Positions 9,060 to 48,704 of a stretch of DNA of 64,000 nucleotides are shown piece after piece. Source of the DNA: Gammaproteobacteria bacterium (GTDB lineage Bacteria > Pseudomonadota > Gammaproteobacteria > GRL18); NCBI GenBank assembly GCA_015488755.1, contig WFNB01000025.1, positions 745-64,744 of the forward strand, written 5' to 3'. The number at the start of each line of letters is the position of its first letter. Position 1 is the first letter of the stretch. The notes below the pieces were generated by a model. That model saw only the letters and a program-made list of their open reading frames with translations, ran no database searches and was not told the origin of the DNA. The position numbers and the translations under genes are program-made.

Positions 9060-9115
9060 CAAAGTATTTTATGAGCAGTTGATGATTAAAAACAGTTTGT
9101 GGGTGGAGTTGGCGT

Positions 9116-9141
9116 TTTTGGAGTTGGGGCTTTAGCCCCGC
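9116..9141. repeat. REP-like hairpin repeat, inverted copy
   Basis: TTTTGGAGTTGGGGCTTTAGCCCCGC is the exact reverse complement of 523-548. Confidence 0.75.
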
Positions 9142-9207
9142 AAGCTCTGGGACTTGGGTTTGGGCTAAAGCCTTGGAACCAATAAGTTTGCCATTTCATA
9201 AAGACAT

Positions 9208-9275: not shown

Positions 9276-9923
9276 TTAAATCATGTCAAATGAAGTATCT
9301 ATTGGTGTCTCGTGAGAGCCAACAATACTGATTTCTTCATAAGGCGTGTTATAGATATAATGGCTTGGATCTGAATCATTGCCAGAGTCATTGTGGTTAT
9401 TATTGGCATTATTATCGTTGCCTGAATCATTATGATTGCCATTATTATCATTGCCATTATTATCATTGCCATTATTATCATTGCCATTATTATTATTGCC
9501 TGAATCATTATGATTATTTAATAAATCATCAGCATCTCTAATACGAGTAGTTAAAAAATCGTTATCAAGATTGTTTCGGGCACTAGATAAAATCTCATGT
9601 TGCAATTCATCTAGAGATAGTCCGGTTGCTCGTGCTGTCCATGCAGCTAAACCATCATCACTGGGTGCTCGTCCCAATGAATTACTAAATATAAAAGAAA
9701 CCATCTCCTCATCATTTTTGTCGCCATAAATTGCTGAACTTTCAGTGGATGATAGCATCTCATGTAATATATTGACTTCTGCGTCATCACTAGACAAGCC
9801 TGAGTTAAGCTTGGTTTCATACCGGCTTGCCCATGCATTTAGGGCTGAGGTTGATGAAACAGGACGTGCAAAAGCAGCTTGAAATAATTCTGAAATAACT
9901 TCTTCATTGTGGGTAAATGCCAT
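9276..9923 (-). CDS. DUF4214-domain protein with Asn/Asp/Gly-rich tandem repeat region
   Basis: Two DUF4214-like blocks (FQAAFARPVSS...LNAWASRY and SNSLGRAPSDDGLAAWTA) followed by (GNDNN)n. No signal peptide. Confidence 0.6.
   Translation of the reverse strand: MAFTHNEEVISELFQAAFARPVSSTSALNAWASRYETKLNSGLSSDDAEVNILHEMLSSTESSAIYGDKNDEEMVSFIFSNSLGRAPSDDGLAAWTARATGLSLDELQHEILSSARNNLDNDFLTTRIRDADDLLNNHNDSGNNNNGNDNNGNDNNGNDNNGNHNDSGNDNNANNNHNDSGNDSDPSHYIYNTPYEEISIVGSHETPIDTSFDMI
9435..9494. repeat. 15-bp in-frame tandem repeat (4 units) inside the DUF4214 gene
   Basis: ATTGCCATTATTATC repeated four times head-to-tail. It encodes the GNDNN units on the minus strand. Confidence 0.9.
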
Positions 9924-9975
9924 AGTTGTATTCTCTCTATAATAATTAATTTAACTCTAGTGGTTCGTTCACGTT

Positions 9976-10128
9976 CATAGCTTGGTACTTAAGCATGTCT
10001 GAGGCAGGATAACTCTGTATTTACTACGCAAGACGCCGTAAATCCATCCCTGGAGGCTTTATTGCCACATCCATGTGGCAAAAACTTCCTCCGTAAACAC
10101 AGAGTTATCTTTAAGTACCTATGTATGA
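9976..10128 (+). mobile_element. MITE-like structured element, copy A
   Basis: About 153 bp with terminal inverted repeats ending in GGTACTTAAG / CTTAAGTACC. Flanked by the 9-nt direct repeat GTTCACGTT (9967-9975 and 10129-10137). Near-identical to 31037-31189. Confidence 0.8.
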
Positions 10129-10289
10129 GTTCACGTTAAATAGGATAACTATAAATTCTTAAGAGAACATTAAGAGGATTATATGGTGCGTAAAACTGTG
10201 AACAAGTTCACTGCTTTAAATTTATGGTAGATTTATGGCTAGGAGCAAAATGAATTGAGAAAAGAAGAAAAAGAATAAGGCCTATAGAG

Positions 10290-10349: not shown

Positions 10350-11210
10350 CTAGCCTTTAGCTTTTTCCATTAACTCATGAATTCTTGGGGCAAGAATGAG
10401 TTCCATAGCAAAACCCATTTTACTGCCTGGCACCACCATATTGTTACGCCGAGACATGAATGAATCTGGGATCATATTTAATAAGTATGGGAAATCAACA
10501 TTGTCAGGATCTTTAAAGCGGATCACAATAAAGCTTTCATCGGGTGTTGGAATATCACGAGCAATAAAAGGGTTAGAGGTATCTACTGTTGGTACGCGCT
10601 GGAAATTAATATCAGTACGAGAGAACTGAGGGGTAATATAATTTACATAATCAGGCATACGGCGCAAGATAGTATCAACAATTGCTTCAGCAGAATAACC
10701 ACGCTGTGAATTATCACGATGGATTTTTTGAATCCACTCTAGGTTAACAATAGGGACTACGCCAACTAATAAATCAACATATTTAGAGACATCATCATCA
10801 CCATCTTTGGCACCACCGTGTAGACCTTCATAAAATAATAAGTCAGTGTCGGAAGGAATATTTTCCCATTCGGTAAATTGTCCCGCTGTTAGTGGTGCAT
10901 AAGGTGCAGCTTCTTCATGGCTATGCAGATAATAACGGCGTTTGCACATGCCGGTCTCACCATATTCCTTAAAGGTTTCAGATAAAATATCAAAGTGATT
11001 GGCTTCAGGCCCAAAGTGGCTGAAGGTATCACCTTTTTCTTCTACCGCTACTTTCATAGCAGCACGATCGTAGCGGTGATAACTATCGCCTTCAATTATT
11101 GCTGGATTGATGTTCTCGCGAAAGAAAATGTGCTCAAAGGCATCTTTAACGGTAGTTGTACCGGCACCTGAAGAACCTGTTACTGCAACAACTGGGTGTT
11201 TACTAGACAT
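10350..11210 (-). CDS. prk: Phosphoribulokinase
   Basis: HPVVAVTGSSGAGTTTVKDAFEHIF P-loop N-terminus and full-length resemblance to bacterial PRK/CbbP. Confidence 0.93.
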   Translation of the reverse strand: MSSKHPVVAVTGSSGAGTTTVKDAFEHIFFRENINPAIIEGDSYHRYDRAAMKVAVEEKGDTFSHFGPEANHFDILSETFKEYGETGMCKRRYYLHSHEEAAPYAPLTAGQFTEWENIPSDTDLLFYEGLHGGAKDGDDDVSKYVDLLVGVVPIVNLEWIQKIHRDNSQRGYSAEAIVDTILRRMPDYVNYITPQFSRTDINFQRVPTVDTSNPFIARDIPTPDESFIVIRFKDPDNVDFPYLLNMIPDSFMSRRNNMVVPGSKMGFAMELILAPRIHELMEKAKG

Positions 11211-22610: not shown

Positions 22611-23759
22611 ATGTCCAAAAGAGATTTTTACGAAGTACTTGGGGTTGATAAAACCGCCAGTGATGCCGAGCTGAAAAAAGCTTATCGCCGTTTGGCAATG
22701 AAACATCATCCGGATAGAAATCCTGATAGTGCAGATTCTGAAGCACACTTTAAAGAAGCCAAAGAAGCCTATGAAGTGCTGTCAAATGCCCAAAAACGTC
22801 AGGCTTATGATCAGTTTGGTCATGCGGGTGTTGATCAAAGTGCTGGTATGGGCGGTGGTGCTGGGGGCAATTTCAGTGACATCTTTGGCGATGTGTTTGG
22901 TGATATTTTTTCTGGTGCTGGAGGCGGTGGCGGCGGTCGACGTGGTGAACGGGTTTTTCGTGGTGCTGATTTACAATATAACTTAGAGCTGAGTTTAGAA
23001 GAAGCCGTACATGGTAAGTCGGTAAAAATCCGTGTCCCTACGATGGTAGGCTGTAAAAAATGTGATGGCAGCGGTGCTAAAAAAGGCTCTAGTGCAGATA
23101 CCTGTGGTACTTGTCAGGGCGTTGGACAAGTTCGTATGCAACAAGGTTTTTTCTCCTTGCAACAAACCTGTCCAACCTGTCATGGTACAGGTAAGGTCAT
23201 TAAAGATCCCTGTGATGCCTGTCATGGCGAGGGGCGTATTCAAGAGCACAAAACACTATCGGTTAAAGTACCTGCTGGGGTCGATACAGGTGATCGTATT
23301 CGTCTTTCTAATGAAGGTGAAGCGGGTCAAAATGGTGGGCCTTCCGGTGATCTTTATGTGCATGTGCATGTTAGAGCGCATGATATTTTCACCCGAGAGG
23401 GCAGTGACTTATTTTGTGAAGTCCCTATTAATATTGCCACAGCAGCCCTAGGTGGCACGTTAGAAGTACCCACCTTAGATGGTCGTATTAGTTTAAAGGT
23501 GCCTGCCGAAACGCAAACAGGAAAGATGTTTCGTATGCGTAACAAAGGTGTGAAATCAGTGCGTGGTGGTGTACAGGGTGATCTTTTATGCCGTATTATT
23601 GTGGAAACACCTGTTAAACTGAATGCGAGACAAAAAGAGCTATTAGAAGAGTTTCAGGAAACCTTAGAACAAGGTGGTAAGAGTCACAGTCCAAAAGCTC
23701 ATGGTTGGTTGGATGGTGTTAAGAAGTTCTTTGATGATATGAAACAAAATATTGGTTGA
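22611..23759 (+). CDS. dnaJ: Molecular chaperone DnaJ
   Basis: J domain with HPD, G/F-rich linker, and four CxxCxGxG zinc-finger repeats. Confidence 0.98.
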
Positions 23760-23769
23760 TAAGATCCTA

Positions 23770-23843
23770 CTTCTACTACAAATACAGGCTAATCAACAGG
23801 TTTAATTTGTTTTCAAGATCATTTTATTCAGAGTTCAGATTAA
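23770..23843 (+). repeat. Truncated right-hand portion of the structured element family (copy D)
   Basis: About 85% identical by eye to 37311-37386 (CTTCTaCtACAAATACAGGCtAATCAA...TTTTCAAGATCATtTTATTCAGAgTTCAGATTAA). The left arm is absent. Confidence 0.65.
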
Positions 23844-29474: not shown

Positions 29475-29987
29475 ATGCAAATACATACAATTGCCGGTAA
29501 AACGGCACGAGCTTTATGGCTACCCATATTGATGGCCTTATTCCTTAGTGCTTGTGGCTTTCATTTGCGGGGTGATATTGTTTTGCCTAGCTTATATGAG
29601 CGAGTACATGTGGTTGATAAGGGCTATTCAGATGTTGGCCGATCATTATCGACCGCTTTAATTAATTCCGGTAGTAAAATGGTTGCTTCACCAGAAGAGG
29701 CAAGCTCTGTGATCACCATCCTCTCTCGTGGTATCGAGCGTCGTGCTCTGAATGTCGGTGGCAAACAGGTCAGAGAATATGAGTTGCAACTCACGATTTT
29801 ATTTGTGGTGCAGGATCATAGCGGCAAGCAGTTATCCGAGCCTCAGCGAGTTAGTATTGTGCGTAATTTTCAAAATAATCCCAATGCCGTATTGGGTCGG
29901 GATAATGAAGAGCAAATTATCCGTAGGGAAATGATGCAACCTGCTATTATACAATTATTGCGCCGTCTAAAAGCCATTGCAAATTAA
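29475..29987 (+). CDS. lptE: LPS-assembly lipoprotein LptE
   Basis: Lipobox LSACGFHLRG, family size, conserved position between leuS and holA. Confidence 0.8.
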   Translation: MQIHTIAGKTARALWLPILMALFLSACGFHLRGDIVLPSLYERVHVVDKGYSDVGRSLSTALINSGSKMVASPEEASSVITILSRGIERRALNVGGKQVREYELQLTILFVVQDHSGKQLSEPQRVSIVRNFQNNPNAVLGRDNEEQIIRREMMQPAIIQLLRRLKAIAN

Positions 29988-31026
29988 ACCAGAACAACTG
30001 CGTAACGATCTTAAGGCCAGACAGTATCCTGTCTATCTGGTCTGTGGTGATGAGCCTTTACAACATAAAGAAGCCTGTGATATGTTGCGTAAAGCCGCTC
30101 ATTATTATGGTTATGAAGAGCGTGAAATCTATACTGCAGATGCAAAATTTAACTGGTCTGCTCTGTCTTCTATAGCCAATGAATTATCATTATTTGCCAG
30201 CAAAAAACTTATTGAACTGTATTTGCCAACGGGCAAACCATCAGATAAGGGGCTTGCCCTAAGCCATTATTGCGAACATTTACCAGAAGATACCCTCTTG
30301 TTGATTATGGCTCCCAAAATAGAGGCGGCAACAAGGAAATCTAAATGGTATAAAGCCTTAGAACGGGTGGCAGGTATTATTACTGTTTGGCCTATTGAGG
30401 GGTATCACTTAAACCAATGGTTACAGCGGCGTTTATTAAGCAAGGGATTAATGACCACACAGGATGCTATCGAGTTGATTAATGATCGCATTGAGGGTAA
30501 TTTACTGGCAGGGGATCAAGAAATTGAAAAGCTCAGTCTATTATACTCACCTGCTAAGGGTGAAGAGAATGTACATCTAGACTATGAGCAAGTGGCTGAT
30601 GCCGTTTCTGATAGTGCTCGTTATAATGTCTTTGAATTGTTTGATTGTGCCTTGTCAGGGGATTTAAAACGAGCTTCAAGAATACTCTATGGCCTGCAAC
30701 GTGAAGAGGTATCTATTATACTCATCTTGTCTCTATTTGCTAAGGAAGTACGGTTATTGGCAAAAATGTCAGCCGTGCTGGAGTCTATGGAACAAACTAG
30801 GCAGGTAAAAAATATCGACTTAGCAATGAAAGGTGTTTATATCTTCCCCAAAAGAAAATCACTGATTGCCCAAGCATTGCGTACCAGTCGAGCTGAGCAT
30901 TGGCAACAATTACTTAAACAACTGTTGATGGCGGATAAGTTTTCTAAGGGGGCACAGCTTGGTGATCCTTGGGCTGAGATGCAACTTATTTTATCGGCAG
31001 TCGCAGGTAAAACGTACTTAATTTGA
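29977..31026 (+). CDS. holA: DNA polymerase III subunit delta
   Basis: PEQLRNDLK...YLVCGDEPL N-terminus resembles HolA. Conserved leuS-lptE-holA synteny. TTG start. Confidence 0.85.
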   Translation: MQIKPEQLRNDLKARQYPVYLVCGDEPLQHKEACDMLRKAAHYYGYEEREIYTADAKFNWSALSSIANELSLFASKKLIELYLPTGKPSDKGLALSHYCEHLPEDTLLLIMAPKIEAATRKSKWYKALERVAGIITVWPIEGYHLNQWLQRRLLSKGLMTTQDAIELINDRIEGNLLAGDQEIEKLSLLYSPAKGEENVHLDYEQVADAVSDSARYNVFELFDCALSGDLKRASRILYGLQREEVSIILILSLFAKEVRLLAKMSAVLESMEQTRQVKNIDLAMKGVYIFPKRKSLIAQALRTSRAEHWQQLLKQLLMADKFSKGAQLGDPWAEMQLILSAVAGKTYLI

Positions 31027-31036
31027 TAAGCATCAT

Positions 31037-31189
31037 GCATAGGTAGGTACTTAAGCATGTCTGAGGCAGGATAACTCTGTATTTACTACGCAAGACGCCG
31101 TAAATCCATCCTTGGAGGCTTTATTGCCACATCCATGTGGCAAAAACTTCCTCCGTAAACACAGAGTTATCCTTAAGTACCTACGTATG
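31037..31189 (+). mobile_element. MITE-like structured element, copy B
   Basis: Near-identical to 9976-10128. Flanked by the direct repeat AAGCATCAT (31028-31036 and 31190-31198). About 19-bp imperfect terminal inverted repeats. Confidence 0.8.
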
Positions 31190-31237
31190 AAGCATCATTA
31201 ATTATTTTGACAGATAGAATAAACAATGGAATAAACA

Positions 31238-32500
31238 ATGGATATTAAACACTATATGACCGACGTGGGTCAGCGTGCACGTCAAGCCTCTAGAGCATTG
31301 GTTAAAGCTAGTAGTAATAAGAAAAATGCCGCTTTATTGGCTATTGCTGAGCTATTGGAAGCATCAATGAGTAGCTTGATTGCAGAAAATAAGAAGGATC
31401 TGGATGCGGGGAAAACTCGTGGCTTAGATGATGCTTTGTTGGATCGTTTGGCGCTTAATGAAGAACGCATTCAAGGTATGGCCGAAGGCTTGCGTCAGAT
31501 TGCTGCCTTACCCGATCCTGTTGGGGAAATATCGGATATGAATTATCAACCATCCGGTTTGCAAATTGGCAAAATGCGTGTGCCTTTAGGGGTCATTGGT
31601 ATTATTTATGAATCCAGACCCAATGTAACGGCCGATGCTGCGGCCTTATGTATGAAGTCAGGCAATGCCGCTATTTTACGTGGTGGCTCCGAAGCAATTC
31701 GTTCCAATCAGGCCATTGCAGAGTGTATTAAACAGGGGCTTGAACAAGCTGGTTTACCTGCTGATGTCGTTCAGGTGATCACCACAACGGATAGAGAAGC
31801 AGTGGGTGAATTGATCACCATGCAGGACTATGTCGATGTCATTGTGCCTCGTGGTGGCAAGGGCTTAATTGAACGCATTAGCGGTAATGCCAGTGTACCG
31901 GTTATTAAACACCTTAATGGTATTTGTCATGTCTATATTGATGATAAAGCGGATCGTCAAAAAGCTATTGATATTGCCTATAACGCTAAAACCCATCGCT
32001 ATGGGGTGTGCAATGCTATGGAAACATTATTGGTGAATCATGCTATTGCTGCTGATGTTTTGCCTGAACTGGCACAAAAATACCGTAATGAAGGTGTTGA
32101 GTTACGTTGTTGTGAGGGGAGTGCTAAAATACTTGCTGACTTTGCCACACAGGCTGCGACGGATGAAGACTGGGATACAGAATACCTAGCACCGGTATTA
32201 TCCATTCGACTGGTTGATGATATGGATGCCGCTATTGAACATATTTTTGCTCATAGTTCGGGGCATACAGAAGCCATCGTAACGGAAGACTTTAGTCGTG
32301 CCCGACGTTTCCTTGCTGAAGTTGACTCCAGTTCCGTTATGGTCAATGCCTCAACCCGTTTTGCCGATGGCTTTGAATATGGTTTGGGAGCAGAGATCGG
32401 CATTAGCACGGACAAGATCCATGTTCGTGGCCCAGTAGGGCTAGAGGGACTTACCTCACAAAAATACATTGTTTTAGGTGATGGACATATTAGAACTTAG
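31238..32500 (+). CDS. proA: Glutamate-5-semialdehyde dehydrogenase
   Basis: Full-length ProA resemblance, including the [10 protein letters not shown] catalytic Cys block. Confidence 0.95.
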
Positions 32501-37197: not shown

Positions 37198-37227
37198 ATA
37201 AGCTGAGTTCCGGATGACAGCATAAGT

Positions 37228-37386
37228 AACGTATTGATTAGCCTGTATTTGTTACAGAAGTCACCGTAAATACCTCCCTGTAGGCTTCACTTTGGCATCC
37301 ATGCCAAAGAGACTTCTTCCACAAATACAGGCCAATCAATATGTTAAATTTATTTTCAAGATCATCTTATTCAGAATTCAGATTAA
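37228..37386 (+). repeat. Diverged member of the structured element family (copy C) with 3' tail
   Basis: About 25-bp inverted termini AACGTATTGATTAGCCTGTATTTGT / ACAAATACAGGCCAATCAATATGTT. Shares the core CCGTAAAT.C.TCCCTG.AGGCTT and the CATCCATG apical loop with copies A and B. The tail is shared with 23770-23843. Confidence 0.7.
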
Positions 37387-37699: not shown

Positions 37700-39790
37700 A
37701 TGGCTGATTTAAGCAAATACCGTAACATAGGCATCTTCGCACACGTTGATGCTGGCAAGACCACGACCACTGAACGTATTTTAAATCTAACGGGTAAGAC
37801 CCATAAGATTGGTGAAGTACATGATGGTGAAGCAACCACTGACTTTATGGAACAAGAACAAGAACGTGGTATTACCATTCAATCGGCAGCAACTTCCTGT
37901 GAATGGAATGGCCACCGTATGAATATTATTGACACACCAGGACACGTTGATTTCACCATTGAAGTGTATCGTTCACTAAAAGTCCTCGATGGTGGTGTGG
38001 GTGTTTTCTGTGGTTCTGGTGGTGTGGAGCCTCAGTCAGAAACTAACTGGCGTTATGCGAATGAATCCGGTGTTGCTCGTGTTATTTTTGTTAACAAGCT
38101 GGATCGTCTTGGTGCAGATTTCTATCGAGTCGTTGATCAGGTTGAAAATGTACTACAAGCCACTCCTTTAGTCATGGTTCTACCAATTGGTGAAGAAGAT
38201 GACTTTGCTGGTTGTGTTGACTTGTTAACTCAGAAAGCATGGGTTTGGGATGGTTCAGGCGATCCTAGTAAGTATGAAATACAAGATATTCCTGCTGATA
38301 TGGTTGATAAGGCAGCAGAATATCGTGAACAGTTAATTGAAACGGCACTTGAGCAAGACGATGCACTGATGGAAGCCTATCTTGAAGGTGAAGAGCCTTC
38401 TATCGATGATATTAAGCGTTGTATTCGTAAAGGGACAATTGCTCTTGATTTCTTCCCAACTTACTGTGGCTCTGCCTTTAAAAACAAAGGCATTCAATTA
38501 ATATTGGATGCGGTGGTGGATTACCTACCTAACCCAATGGAAGTCGCTCCTCAACCAGAAGTTGATTTGGATGGTAATGAGACCGGTGAGCTTGCCATTG
38601 TTGATCCTGAAAAACCAGTACGTGCTTTAGCATTCAAAATTATGGATGATCGTTTTGGTGCATTAACCTTTATTCGTATTTACTCAGGTACGGTGCAAAA
38701 AGGTATGACCTTATTAAATACCTTTACAGGAAAAACAGAACGTATTGGCCGTATTGTAGAAATGCATGCCGACTCTCGTGAAGAGCTGGACTCTTGTCAA
38801 GCAGGCGATATTGTTGCTTTTGTTGGTTTGAAGAATACTCAAACAGGTCATACGTTATGTGATCCTAAGCAACCTGCGACATTAGAACCAATGGTGTTCC
38901 CTGATCCCGTTATTTCGATTGCTATTTCACCCAATGATAAGGGTGGTTCTGAGAAAATGGGTATTGCGCTGAACAAAATGGTGAAAGAAGATCCTTCTTT
39001 CCACGTTGAAACAGACGAAGAAAGCGGTGAAACCATTCTTAAGGGAATGGGTGAATTACACTTAGATATCAAAATTGATATCCTTAAGCGTACTCATGGT
39101 GTTGATGTCACAGTGGGTAAACCTCAGGTTGCCTATCGTGAGTCAATCACTCAAGCTGTTGAAGACAGTTATACACATAAGAAACAATCGGGTGGTTCTG
39201 GTCAATATGGTCGTATTGACTATACCATCACTCCAGGTGAGCCAAACAGTGGTTATACGTTTGAATCTAAGGTGACTGGTGGTAATGTCCCAAGTGAATA
39301 TTGGGGTGCGATTGATAAAGCGTTTGAGCGTATGATGAATGAAGGTGTTCTGGCTGGTTTCCCTGTGGTTGATGTACACGTTGAATTGCAAGATGGTGCC
39401 TATCATGCCGTGGATTCATCCGCTATGGCGTTTGAATTGGCCGCCTATGGTGCTTATCGTCAAACAATGAAGAAAGCCGGCCCACAATTACTTGAGCCTA
39501 TTATGAAAGTCGATGTGTTTACTCCAGAAGCGCACGTTGGTGATTGTATTGGTGACTTGAATCGTCGTCGTGGCATGATTAAAGATCAAGAGTCAAATCC
39601 AATGGGGACTCGCATCAAGGCCGATGCACCCTTAAGTGAAATGTTTGGTTATATTGGTGATTTGCGTACCATGACTTCTGGTCGTGGTCAGTTCTCAATG
39701 GAATTTTCACATTATAGTGCTTGCCCTAAGAACGTTGCTGAGGAAGTCATTAAAGAGACCTTAGAGCGTAAAGAAAAAGCGAAAAAATAA
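37700..39790 (+). CDS. fusA: Elongation factor G paralogue (EF-G2 type), stand-alone
   Basis: [20 protein letters not shown] and NKLD GTPase motifs, full five-domain length. Not flanked by rpsL/rpsG/tuf. Confidence 0.95.
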
Positions 39791-39823
39791 GCATTATTAA
39801 CAATGTGTTTCTTTTTCTAAAAA

Positions 39824-39850
39824 GGCCGGTCATTGACTGGCCTTTTTTTA
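39824..39850 (+). terminator. Rho-independent terminator after the EF-G paralogue
   Basis: GGCCGGTC-ATT-GACTGGCC stem (one G-U pair) followed by TTTTTTTA. Confidence 0.8.
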
Positions 39851-39880
39851 TTTAAGATTAAGTATCTAGGAAATTAACCA

Positions 39881-45857: not shown

Positions 45858-48038
45858 ATGCATTTTTTTATGGTTCTGTTTCTCTATTTAAGCCTTTCCC
45901 TGCTCAGTGTTTCATTGGCAAGCCAAAATCCCATTTTACAGCGTATACCAGAAAATAGCTTATTTTTTTCTGGCAATACACAGATGATAAATATCGATGA
46001 ATGGCCATTACTAAACTATAGTCAGTCATTTTCAGAGCTAAAAATAGCAAAAGAAACCATGGCTAAAGAACAAGTGTTTTTTTATGAATTATATCAGGAT
46101 TTTAGACAAACAATTCAGCAGAGCAATAGGATAAGCAAGAGTCGTGCCTTAAGAGAGCATTATGGTTTAGCACAAAATCTTGGTTTTTCTTTTTATACGG
46201 TGGGTGTTGTTCCCGTACTAAGTATCACAATTGATCATGCAGCCGCTTTTTTAACGGCATTGGATCAGGCTGAACAAGTATCGCAATTACACTATGAAAC
46301 ACAGACCTTAAGCGGGGTTCATTTTCGCTCTTACCCCATAAGTAACAATTATCAGTTTATTGTGGCGATAGATGAGTCTATAGCGGGTTATAAATTACTG
46401 ACACTGTCTATTTTTAGATCGAATATGACTCAGGTTCAAAAAGAACAAATCCTTGGTTTGTCAAAACCTAAAAAAAATATTACCAAAAAGGTTTTGGAGA
46501 TAGAAAATATCCACCAATATCAACCGATTGCCATTGGTTTTTTTGATTTTCAAGAAGTGATCCGTTCTTTATTTAAAGAGCAAGATAACCCGTGGGAGTT
46601 CTTCTTAGGTAAAGATGATCTGTTTATTAATTCGCTAAAAGAATCTCAATGCGAATTGGATATGAATGCTATTGCTTGGGATATCCCAAAGATTGTCGCA
46701 GGCTATAAACATTATGATAATCAGGGGCAGACGCAGAAAATGCTTATTGAGGTATTATTGGAGTTGGAAAATAAGCAATTTACAACACAGCTAAAGAATT
46801 TTAGAGGCTTTATTCCAGATTATATTCGTCATGGAGCGAATGATAATATTATGGCACTGGGCTTGGGTATTAAATTATCCAATATGATGCCTTTTTTTGC
46901 TTATGTTTCTCAGGTTTTTAGAGACAGTCACTTTCAATGTCAGGCATTAAAAAAGATACAGCAACGTGTGGCGAAATTTAACCCACTGATGTTAGCAATG
47001 TTCTCTGGTGTGATCGATGGTGTACAAGGCGTTGCTTTTGCTATACAAGAATTCGCCATCAAAAAAAACTCAGAACAAGTCTCTGATGCACAGAAAAAGC
47101 AGGTAGAACTGTCTATGTTAATGAGTTTATCGGCATCTGAGCCACTGAAAGTATGGCAGATGCTATCTGCTTTTGGTCTACCCGTAGGTCATTCAACTAA
47201 TGGGCAGGATAAAAATACACAGAAAAAACAAAACTTAACCCCGTCTAGCAGTCCTCAGAAGTTAGACTTTCCAGAGTTAGAAGCCCTGGGCATTGAGCTA
47301 TTTATTGCGCTTAAAGGTAAACATCTCGTTGTTTATAGTGGTCAGCAAGCAGAACAAATAAGCCAGTCCTTAGTGAATGAGCTATTAGTGCCTAATGGTA
47401 TTTTGCAAGAAAGTATGAATTACACCAAGATAAATGAATTGATGAAAACAGTGCAGTATTTTTTACGCTCACCACAAACATCGGCTAAGCAACCGCTTAC
47501 TATGGCTATGCCAGCAGAATCCTGCGTTATGTTTGATGAAGCAATGACTCGTCTATCCCAGTTCTCTGGTGTGATGGATGTACAAAATGATGTTGTGGAT
47601 CAGGGCGTGTTGACTAGCTTATATGCGGATCTCAAAATCAACTCAAGCAAACAAAAAAGTGATTTTTTAGCAGGGCGTTATGAAACCTATGCGATGCTTG
47701 ATGGTTGCCAGTTAGAAAAAGATGGCTTAGAAGAGATTTTCGCAGATGGTACGGGCTTTTATCAGCAATACTCAGATGATCGACAATGTTTTATTTTTGA
47801 AACCCGTTATCGTTGGTTAAAGGATAATGATCGCATTAAGTTGCAATATGTTAGTGAAAGGACTCGTCCAGAAGGTGTTTGTAGTAATGTTTTTAGTGAA
47901 TGGCATTTACCCGAAGCAGAATATATTAATGATACTTGCCGGTTAAGAACGGAAGAAAATGGTTATTTTTCTTGTGTCTATGAATGGGATGGCGTTATGA
48001 ATAAGGCCATTTATCAGCCAATTAGCCATTCTAAATAA
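45858..48038 (+). CDS. Large secreted hypothetical protein
   Basis: Long uninterrupted ORF with an N-terminal signal peptide (LSVSLASQ). No motif I can assign. Confidence 0.55.
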   Translation: MHFFMVLFLYLSLSLLSVSLASQNPILQRIPENSLFFSGNTQMINIDEWPLLNYSQSFSELKIAKETMAKEQVFFYELYQDFRQTIQQSNRISKSRALREHYGLAQNLGFSFYTVGVVPVLSITIDHAAAFLTALDQAEQVSQLHYETQTLSGVHFRSYPISNNYQFIVAIDESIAGYKLLTLSIFRSNMTQVQKEQILGLSKPKKNITKKVLEIENIHQYQPIAIGFFDFQEVIRSLFKEQDNPWEFFLGKDDLFINSLKESQCELDMNAIAWDIPKIVAGYKHYDNQGQTQKMLIEVLLELENKQFTTQLKNFRGFIPDYIRHGANDNIMALGLGIKLSNMMPFFAYVSQVFRDSHFQCQALKKIQQRVAKFNPLMLAMFSGVIDGVQGVAFAIQEFAIKKNSEQVSDAQKKQVELSMLMSLSASEPLKVWQMLSAFGLPVGHSTNGQDKNTQKKQNLTPSSSPQKLDFPELEALGIELFIALKGKHLVVYSGQQAEQISQSLVNELLVPNGILQESMNYTKINELMKTVQYFLRSPQTSAKQPLTMAMPAESCVMFDEAMTRLSQFSGVMDVQNDVVDQGVLTSLYADLKINSSKQKSDFLAGRYETYAMLDGCQLEKDGLEEIFADGTGFYQQYSDDRQCFIFETRYRWLKDNDRIKLQYVSERTRPEGVCSNVFSEWHLPEAEYINDTCRLRTEENGYFSCVYEWDGVMNKAIYQPISHSK

Positions 48039-48167: not shown

Positions 48168-48704
48168 CTAATAATCAATATCGACCTTAAAGGTATCAAA
48201 AATAATATTAGCTGCACGCATGGTTGCACCACTATTAACCGCTTCAAAAATTTCTTTTTCACTTAAACCAGCCTCTTTAAGTGCCAACATATCACCTTCG
48301 GTTATATCGTGAGCATGATCAACAGCCTTCAAGACAAAAAGTAGCAGAAGTTTTTCTTTTTCATCTAATGATGCTGTACTGGGATCGGTTTTAAGTAATT
48401 GTACTTCTTCAGGGCTCATAGCAAATAGGTTAATTAACATACCAGCATTAAGGCCGATGCAATAGTCGCACTGAGCTTCTTTGGATACCAATAGACGGAT
48501 CATAGTATTCAGTTTGGCAGAAGGTGTTGTTTGGCTATCAAAATACTGATATTTTTGCCATTGATTTTTTAATAACTCAGGGCTAACAGAGTACATTTGA
48601 ATCGGATTGGGTATCATTTTCCATGTGGCTTCAATTTCACTATAGACATCGGCAACCAGACCTTGAGCATTTTCGGGTGAGACACTGGTGGTTAATAAAC
48701 TCAT
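48168..48704 (-). CDS. Carboxymuconolactone decarboxylase / AhpD-like family protein
   Basis: CDYCIGLN CxxC block in an all-helical protein of about 180 aa. Confidence 0.75.
   Translation of the reverse strand: MSLLTTSVSPENAQGLVADVYSEIEATWKMIPNPIQMYSVSPELLKNQWQKYQYFDSQTTPSAKLNTMIRLLVSKEAQCDYCIGLNAGMLINLFAMSPEEVQLLKTDPSTASLDEKEKLLLLFVLKAVDHAHDITEGDMLALKEAGLSEKEIFEAVNSGATMRAANIIFDTFKVDIDY

Follow-up and report, generated by a model that had tools for sequence, protein, structure and literature searches.

Gene context of the repeated element

The window, that is, the whole 64,000-nucleotide stretch of DNA analysed here, is a metagenomic scaffold (ENA ERZ23495603, REYS20-1 scaffold_102), and, among named organisms, its holA and prk have their best relatives in gamma-proteobacterial sulfur-oxidising symbionts, the hosts of which are lucinid clams (Lucinoma, Bathyaustriella, Taylorina) and the snail Gigantopelta. 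Searched without bias for repeats, the whole window yielded a 153-nt direct repeat at 9976-10128 (copy A) and 31038-31190 (copy B), with a start-to-start spacing of 21062 and 97% identity in a MAFFT alignment (Table 1). The initial annotation had placed copy A at the same coordinates and copy B one base too low (31037-31189), and it had rightly described the copies as nearly identical, intergenic and in one orientation (A and B lie on the same strand); its count of about six substitutions becomes five per 153 positions upon alignment, four of which fall within the outer 20 bp.

Copy A lies 52 bp upstream of the start of an Asn-rich ORF (9276-9923, minus strand), with the stop codon of prk (10350-11210, also minus strand) on its other side, and copy B lies between holA (29977-31026) and proA (31238-32500), both on the plus strand. 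The target of copy B corresponds to the last four codons of a 353-aa holA, which read GAT AAG CAT TAT TAA in the sister lineage described below. In the window, an additional A shortly upstream introduces a premature TGA, so that holA is 349 aa long rather than 353 aa. This extra A (31020-31026; CTTAATTTGA in the window as against CTTATTTGA in six sister contigs) is located 11 bp upstream of the element, and without it holA would run into the element and end at the TAG of GCATAG.

Table 1 Positions of the family-1 copies, their ends and target duplications, and of the related family F2 in the window
Feature	Position	Strand	Remark
Family-1 MITE copy A (CAT...ATG, 152 bp)	9976-10127	+	Absent at the orthologous site in L038 and L039; BLAST breakpoints 10128 and 9975
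Family-1 MITE copy B (CAT...ATG, 152 bp)	31038-31189	+	Absent in six sister-lineage contigs, L026-L031
Copy A left terminal inverted repeat, CATAGCTTGGTACTTAAG	9976-9993	+	
Copy A right terminal inverted repeat, CATACATAGGTACTTAAA	10110-10127	-	Minus-strand reading
Copy B left terminal inverted repeat, CATAGGTAGGTACTTAAG	31038-31055	+	
Copy B right terminal inverted repeat, CATACGTAGGTACTTAAG	31172-31189	-	Minus-strand reading
Copy A target duplication, left, CGTTCACGTT	9966-9975	.	Exact 9-mer GTTCACGTT at 9967-9975
Copy A target duplication, right, AGTTCACGTT	10128-10137	.	Exact 9-mer at 10129-10137; L038 HSPs overlap by 10 nt
Copy B target duplication, left, AAGCATCATG	31028-31037	.	Exact 9-mer AAGCATCAT at 31028-31036
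Copy B target duplication, right, AAGCATCATT	31190-31199	.	L026 HSPs overlap by 9 nt
Conserved centre, copy B	31099-31160	-	Hairpin UUGCCAC-AUGGAU-GUGGCAA and a second AYGGAY; copy A equivalent at 10037-10098
F2, second related MITE family	37205-37383	+	Ends CTGAGTTC.../...GAATTCAG; flanked by ATTAAATAAG(CT); centre ~70% identical to family 1
F2 right half (truncated)	23769-23843	+	Just past the stop of the gene ending at 23759

Structure of the element

The family-1 element is 152-154 bp in length, with a variant of 180 bp, and forms a nearly complete nested palindrome that, as initially proposed, has no coding capacity (that is, no ORF of its own). The inverted-repeat ends also stand, with a length of 18 bp in place of the approximately 19 bp claimed at first: the repeat CATAnGTAGGTACTTAAG is present at both ends in all full copies. 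Joined into a single pattern, the terminal and subterminal repeats match the window four times, at the four ends and nowhere else, and never in 100 shuffles. When folded as RNA, the plus strand of the element reaches -64.3 kcal/mol and the minus strand -68.1 kcal/mol (z -8.6 and -7.5, respectively, against shuffles). A promoter scan of the element gave no convincing outward promoter, and a terminator scan gave a weak terminator-like hairpin only, on the minus strand.

Target site and duplication

Both flanking duplications described in the initial annotation are present. Copy A is bracketed by the perfect 9-nt direct repeat GTTCACGTT at exactly 9967-9975 and 10129-10137, and copy B by another 9-mer, AAGCATCAT, at 31028-31036 and 31190-31198, the register of which is shifted by one base relative to that of copy A. 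The probability of an exact 9-mer repeat at a fixed junction by chance is ~4e-6. A single description fits both copies, namely a 152-bp CAT...ATG element with a 10-bp duplication that carries one mismatch in each.

The same pattern extends to all 16 full copies known from the window and from a second metagenome (see below). In each of them (16/16), the 8 bp that adjoin the element are repeated at its other side, with a different duplication for every copy; this 8-bp core is perfect in 13/16, two copies have one or two core mismatches, and in copy B the core is perfect and the mismatch lies at the adjoining base. The reconstructed targets have T in 16/16 and A in 15/16 before the 8-bp core, and T in 14/16 and A in 15/16 after it, and these base counts define the target as TA-N8-TA. 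The sole exception to TA on the left side is copy A (TC), for which the empty allele reads TA. Furthermore, in 15 of the 16 copies, two A/A cases included, CAT is separated from the left 8-mer by a base that recurs directly after the right 8-mer. This base is thus part of the duplication rather than of the element, and the duplication would be at least 9 bp. The most natural reading may be the symmetric one, in which a 152-bp CAT...ATG element is flanked by a 10-bp duplication (A-N8-T) after cuts inside both TA dinucleotides. The positions that would decide the exact length hardly vary among the targets, so that, on sequence alone, 8, 9 and 10 bp are all compatible; alignment overlaps at empty sites are 9 and 10 nt. 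The duplication claimed at the outset is thus present at every full copy, and its strict length of 9 bp is better read as 9-10 bp within TA-N8-TA.

These duplications bear on how such a repeat could have spread. A strongly palindromic, intergenic and multi-copy sequence with the stable folds given above might be thought of as a REP/REPIN-type or other palindromic intergenic repeat, dispersed by a RAYT (IS200/IS605-like) or by recombination and not by a DDE transposase. However, REP/REPIN elements make no target duplication, whereas here every full copy has its own 9-10 bp duplication of a defined target, which, together with the precise empty sites described below, is a hallmark of staggered-cut DDE transposition, and the Pfam matches of the window include neither a RAYT nor a Y1 transposase. 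We consider this reading very improbable. The Correia elements of Neisseria and the ERIC elements of enterobacteria are similar to family 1 as near-palindromes of ~100-170 bp that are intergenic, form long hairpins and are co-transcribed with their neighbours, but they duplicate only the TA dinucleotide, and they share no sequence similarity with family 1, in which the duplication spans 9-10 bp and takes in part of each of two TA dinucleotides. A Correia/ERIC-type, TA-duplicating element is ruled out by the duplication of 8 bp plus one or two flanking bases; it is on the basis of the 9-10 bp duplication that both the REP/REPIN-type and the Correia/ERIC-type readings are rejected.

Empty sites in a sister lineage

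A sister lineage with a DNA identity of ~95.6% to the window (98% for holA and 99% for prk) is represented in independent assemblies (ERZ27262679, JOHN19-1, GCA_027012275.1, GCA_026990855.1 and three Logan runs). The locus of copy B is empty in 6/6 aligned sister contigs (L026-L031), in which the holA-proA spacer is 36 bp: the empty allele ...TTTGATAAGCATTATTAATTA... contains the target once, GATAAGCATTATTAA, as against ...GATAAGCATCAT-G-[CATAGG...GTATG]-AAGCATCAT-TAATTA at the filled site in the window. The locus of copy A is empty in two sister contigs (L038 and L039), with ...TTTAACGTGAACTAACAAC... present once; on the strand opposite to the forward strand of the window, this allele has a single TA-ACGTGAAC-TA, and the filled site on the reverse strand of the window is ...TTTAACGTGAAC-T-[CATAC...CTATG]-AACGTGAAC-GAACCAC. 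The sister-contig BLAST alignments break exactly at the element, with HSP overlaps of 9 nt for copy B and 10 nt for copy A, and the flanks of both junctions of both copies are collinear with the sister lineage. Alleles of this kind had been named in the initial annotation as a check on mobility; they are found for both window copies, one of them with the single GTTCACGTT that was expected (AACGTGAAC when read on the opposite strand).

More distant relatives (holA 74%) lack the element as well, and insertion is therefore a more parsimonious reading than excision. Insertion of both window copies after the split from the ~95.6% sister lineage is, as judged from these alignments, strongly supported.

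Copies outside the window

A metagenome scan for the family yielded 16 contigs, without exception from the JGI metagenome Ga0256831 (at least 16 loci), with at least 14 further full family-1 copies as well as truncated ones, such that the additional copies for which the initial annotation had suggested a search do exist and, as described above, carry flanking direct repeats at each full copy (16/16). Together, the window and Ga0256831 provide 16 full copies with 86-100% mutual identity (BLAST and alignment); besides these, one copy is cut by a contig end, one is truncated and one is a chimera. Seven metagenome matches outside Ga0256831 differ in spacer length and are not otherwise similar, and we regard them as chance, as we do a single match in a Terriglobia MAG (GGTACTTAAN{0,18}GATAACTCTGT, searched in 185,579 species-representative genomes) that likewise shows no further similarity. 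BLAST searches with the family-1 element against plasmid and phage collections, in distant mode, returned no match.

The host in Ga0256831 has a PurL with 99% identity to that of the MAG GCA_027070535.1 and 83% identity to that of a Bathyaustriella symbiont, which places it, on this protein, in the same broad clade as the window lineage. The relative with a holA identity of 74%, GCA_013139395.1, is a different organism. Copies A and B share the diagnostic bases CATGTC, and all other copies have CACTTT; the window copies therefore derive from a source copy specific to their lineage.

Four full copies and one truncated copy, from different subfamilies, contain a 26-bp extra hairpin. This insert (CGTACCCCAAGGGCACTTCCTTYGGG) is bounded by a CGTA repeat and distinguishes the 180-bp variant (L009 987-1166, L017 2010-2189, L019 2809-2988, L020 8925-9104 and L018 about 870-1018), one copy of which is otherwise 100% identical to a 154-bp copy. 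The distribution of the insert suggests that it may have been lost or gained precisely and repeatedly.

As the window is a metagenomic scaffold, and as repeats can cause mis-joins, the two copies could in principle reflect an assembly artefact or a chance repeat. We regard the probability of this as negligible, given that the same family occurs at no fewer than 16 loci in an independent metagenome, that both junctions of both copies run into DNA collinear with the sister lineage, and that the end pattern is absent from all 100 shuffles.

A non-autonomous transposon and its proposed mobilization

Taken together, we propose, with a probability of about 90%, that the repeats are recently inserted copies of a non-autonomous DNA transposon (that is, a MITE) mobilized by a DDE-type transposase from elsewhere. 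The transposition reading of the initial annotation is borne out by a separate duplication for each copy, by empty sites at both loci, by the copy family and by the target motif. The element is smaller than 500 bp and without coding capacity, has terminal inverted repeats and copy-specific target duplications, is dispersed (two window copies, and no fewer than 16 loci in Ga0256831) and shows presence/absence polymorphism. Its ends, duplications, empty sites, copy family and target motif are direct observations. In its small size, lack of ORFs, inverted-repeat ends and target duplication, it is similar to bacterial MITEs such as the MIC231 cassettes, as it is in its many dispersed intergenic copies, its insertion polymorphism between close relatives and its nesting. 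No sequence relative of it was found in plasmids, in phages, in Rfam at threshold or among 185,579 species genomes, and we know of no described MITE to which a TA-N8-TA target with a 9-10 bp duplication could be assigned. We therefore view it as an ordinary kind of element that constitutes a new family.

The following sequence of events can be envisioned. A DDE-type transposase encoded elsewhere would recognize the ends of the element, cut a TA-N8-TA target at staggered positions approximately one helical turn from each other and join the element in, after which repair of the gaps would duplicate 9-10 bp. Copy B inserted in holA, within its final four codons, and the insertion of copy A is 52 bp in front of the start of an ORF. 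No copy lies inside the body of an ORF, and several are 0-8 codons from a stop, as expected given that stop codons contain TA; the restriction of the surviving copies to intergenic DNA and gene ends would reflect the presence there of TA-rich targets, stop codons among them, and the removal of mid-gene insertions by selection.

These findings attest to very recent transposition within an uncultured clade of sulfur oxidizers related to clam and snail symbionts; a literature search on MITEs in sulfur-oxidising symbionts gave nothing relevant. Between close relatives, insertions alter the ends of genes (the C terminus of holA) and the spacers of operons, so the elements could serve as strain-level markers and could be a source of regulatory change. 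Moreover, the 16 copies yield a clean TA-N8-TA motif and an end signature that, in combination, narrow the search for the transposase.

Candidate family of the transposase

As initially reported, the window has no transposase: a Pfam search of all window ORFs of at least 120 aa identified no transposase family, with two ORFs, at 45858-48038 (726 aa) and 48168-48704 (178 aa), lacking any family at E <= 1e-5. The suggested search for an insertion sequence (IS) with matching terminal inverted repeats was negative in the window, in ~400 kb of related loci, and among plasmids, phages and viral contigs. Within the window and the ~400 kb of related loci, additional end-like sequences (up to 4 mismatches in 18) were MITE ends only, with no full-length IS, and no autonomous IS with matching ends was recovered among plasmids, phages and viral contigs. 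A single viral-contig match to the end sequence lies inside a coding region and was attributed to chance.

The ends themselves offer a lead. IS231 has the end signature CAT-------AA--TAA--- with direct repeats of 10-12 bp, and ISH8, a subgroup that is also found in proteobacteria, has CAT-----------T----- with direct repeats of 10 bp (De Palmenaer et al. 2008, PMC2266710, Table 1). The end of the family-1 element, CATAAGTAGGTACTTAAG, fits 7/8 IS231 positions and 4/4 ISH8 positions. It shares with these subgroups the 5'-CAT ends, the A at end position 12, the TAA at positions 15-17 and, on the 10-bp reading, a duplication of approximately one helical turn, and differs from IS231 at end position 11, which is T and not A. 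IS231 prefers GGG-N5-CCC-like targets, in contrast to the TA-N8-TA target of the element. On the basis of an end of ~18 bp and the duplication length, we infer as a lead that the parent transposase most likely belongs to the IS4 family and may be IS231/ISH8-like.

A second family, F2

A second MITE family related to family 1, F2, is present in the window (Table 1) and is likewise polymorphic, in that one copy, located between fusA and the gene that follows it (L026 19730-19906), is present in the sister lineage and missing from the window. The empty F2 site of the window is near 39790-39880, and the borders of the sister F2 insertion are fuzzy. Other F2 copies are common to orthologous sites, so F2 appears to be older than family 1.

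The two families also meet in single loci. Downstream of purL, the MAG GCA_027070535.1 has an intact F2 (L043 7880-8200), and in a 95.5%-identical contig of Ga0256831 (L020 8816-9170) a remnant of F2 encloses a family-1 copy. This remnant carries a deletion at CTAATC microhomology. At L015 10315-10470, the left half of a family-1 element and the right half of an F2 element are joined within the shared ATCCATG loop, with a 23-bp deletion. Given that this chimera has no common flanking duplication, it would be a recombinant between elements rather than a chimera that was itself transposed.

The conserved centre and its resemblance to TwoAYGGAY

Among the 16 copies, 8/62 columns are variable in the centre compared with 37/92 elsewhere (Fisher p = 3e-4, with copies that are non-independent). 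The best-conserved part of the element is therefore the centre and not the ends, which a purely selfish MITE model does not predict. The minus strand contains two AYGGAY sites and the plus strand none. As RNA, the family-1 minus strand would form a first hairpin with a stem of 8-9 bp and the loop AUGGAU within a long outer stem, and the stem at the second AYGGAY is only ~3 bp. Between the two families, the loop AUGGAU is kept and the first stem differs in a compensatory manner (GCCAC/GUGGC in family 1 versus UUUGGC/GCCAAA in F2).

These features recall the orphan RNA motif TwoAYGGAY (Rfam RF01731). In small searches with permissive filters, RF01731 matched copy B with 27.8 bits (E 0.014; 31056-31188, minus strand), one Ga0256831 family-1 copy with 28.1 bits (E 0.011) and F2 with 39.7 bits (E 2.9e-5; 231-nt search, minus strand), in each case over the full model length and on the minus strand. 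The gathering cut-off of RF01731 is 43 bits, above all family-1 and F2 scores; at the gathering threshold Rfam has no match in the window, and the RF01731 matches were lost under normal filters in larger searches. A match to Ysr224 (~20 bits) was at the noise level of a generic hairpin and was discarded.

According to its discoverers, TwoAYGGAY has two AYGGAY loops and occurs in Clostridia, gamma-proteobacteria and gut metagenomes, and its closing stem is 'often very large (e.g., 24 base pairs)' (Weinberg et al. 2010, PMC2864571). In the accessible portion of its alignment, several copies from Psychromonas ingrahamii have conserved flanks, and the end strings of family 1 and F2 are absent from that portion. 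The loops have been proposed as CsrA sites (PMC4333381), and Rfam places TwoAYGGAY in the Csr-Rsm clan CL00106 (PMC5753348). With its long closing stem around two AYGGAY-loop hairpins, TwoAYGGAY resembles the structure predicted for the family-1 minus strand; it also occurs in gamma-proteobacteria and has multiple copies in at least one genome (P. ingrahamii), and F2 comes close to its cut-off. By contrast, family 1 reaches only 28 bits and has a weak second hairpin, and TwoAYGGAY is not known to have been described as mobile, or with inverted-repeat ends or target duplications.

It could be argued that the element is primarily a structured RNA module (that is, TwoAYGGAY-like and of the Csr/Rsm-binding clan), the minus-strand double hairpin of which, with its GGA loops, would for example bind CsrA, with the MITE ends serving as a vehicle. 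The full-length minus-strand matches, the restriction of the AYGGAY pair to that strand, the loop kept despite a changed stem, the low variability of the centre and the proposed CsrA role of the motif and its clan all point in this direction, as do the very long P1 stems remarked on by the discoverers of TwoAYGGAY, which fit a MITE-like palindrome. On the other hand, every score is below the cut-off and disappears under normal filters in larger searches, the second hairpin of family 1 is short, and no covariation was detected within family 1 (term +0.15, with a double change in 1/48 pairs). Nor does the AYGGAY-sense strand show a bias with respect to the direction of the flanking genes, as it coincides with the direction of transcription in only 4 of 11 co-directional contexts (4 sense and 7 antisense). 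A tblastn search with E. coli CsrA found no match in the window and related loci, although this absence of csrA from the available sequence is uninformative. Furthermore, such a module would not replace transposition, for which the evidence is direct. We consider it unlikely that RNA function is the primary nature of the element and continue to favour a MITE.

We regard the resemblance of the centre to TwoAYGGAY as real, but the link is unproven and the resemblance is compatible with hairpins that are needed at the DNA level. We raise, tentatively and with more doubt than belief, the possibility that the centre of family 1 and F2 is a genuine relative of TwoAYGGAY, in which case the motif would be the core of an end-swapping superfamily of mobile palindromes, at least in gamma-proteobacteria. 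A requirement of the transposition machinery or of a host factor for the hairpins may then have preserved the core; alternatively, it may have been kept because its spread seeds GGA-loop (CsrA-type) binding sites in transcripts. Such a link would explain the unusually long closing stems and the multi-copy distribution of TwoAYGGAY, and the CsrA binding proposed for it would become a matter of mobile regulatory modules.

Other repeats in the region

The product of the Asn-rich ORF next to copy A (9276-9923, minus strand), which has no Pfam family, is Asn/Asp/Gly-rich, with 15-bp tandem repeats (NDNNG units) at 9397-9515. An inverted repeat pair of 36 nt with 92% complementarity (TTGCGGGGCTAAAGCCCCAACTCCAAAAGCGGCTAC) lies at 521-556 and 9108-9143, 8.5 kb apart; it contains a GC-rich hairpin and may represent another small repeat family or a shared terminator. 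Finally, in the 74%-holA relative GCA_013139395.1, the holA-proA spacer (L044 1374-1618) is occupied by a different palindromic element, one arm of which has approximately ten tandem TTAACGC heptamers.
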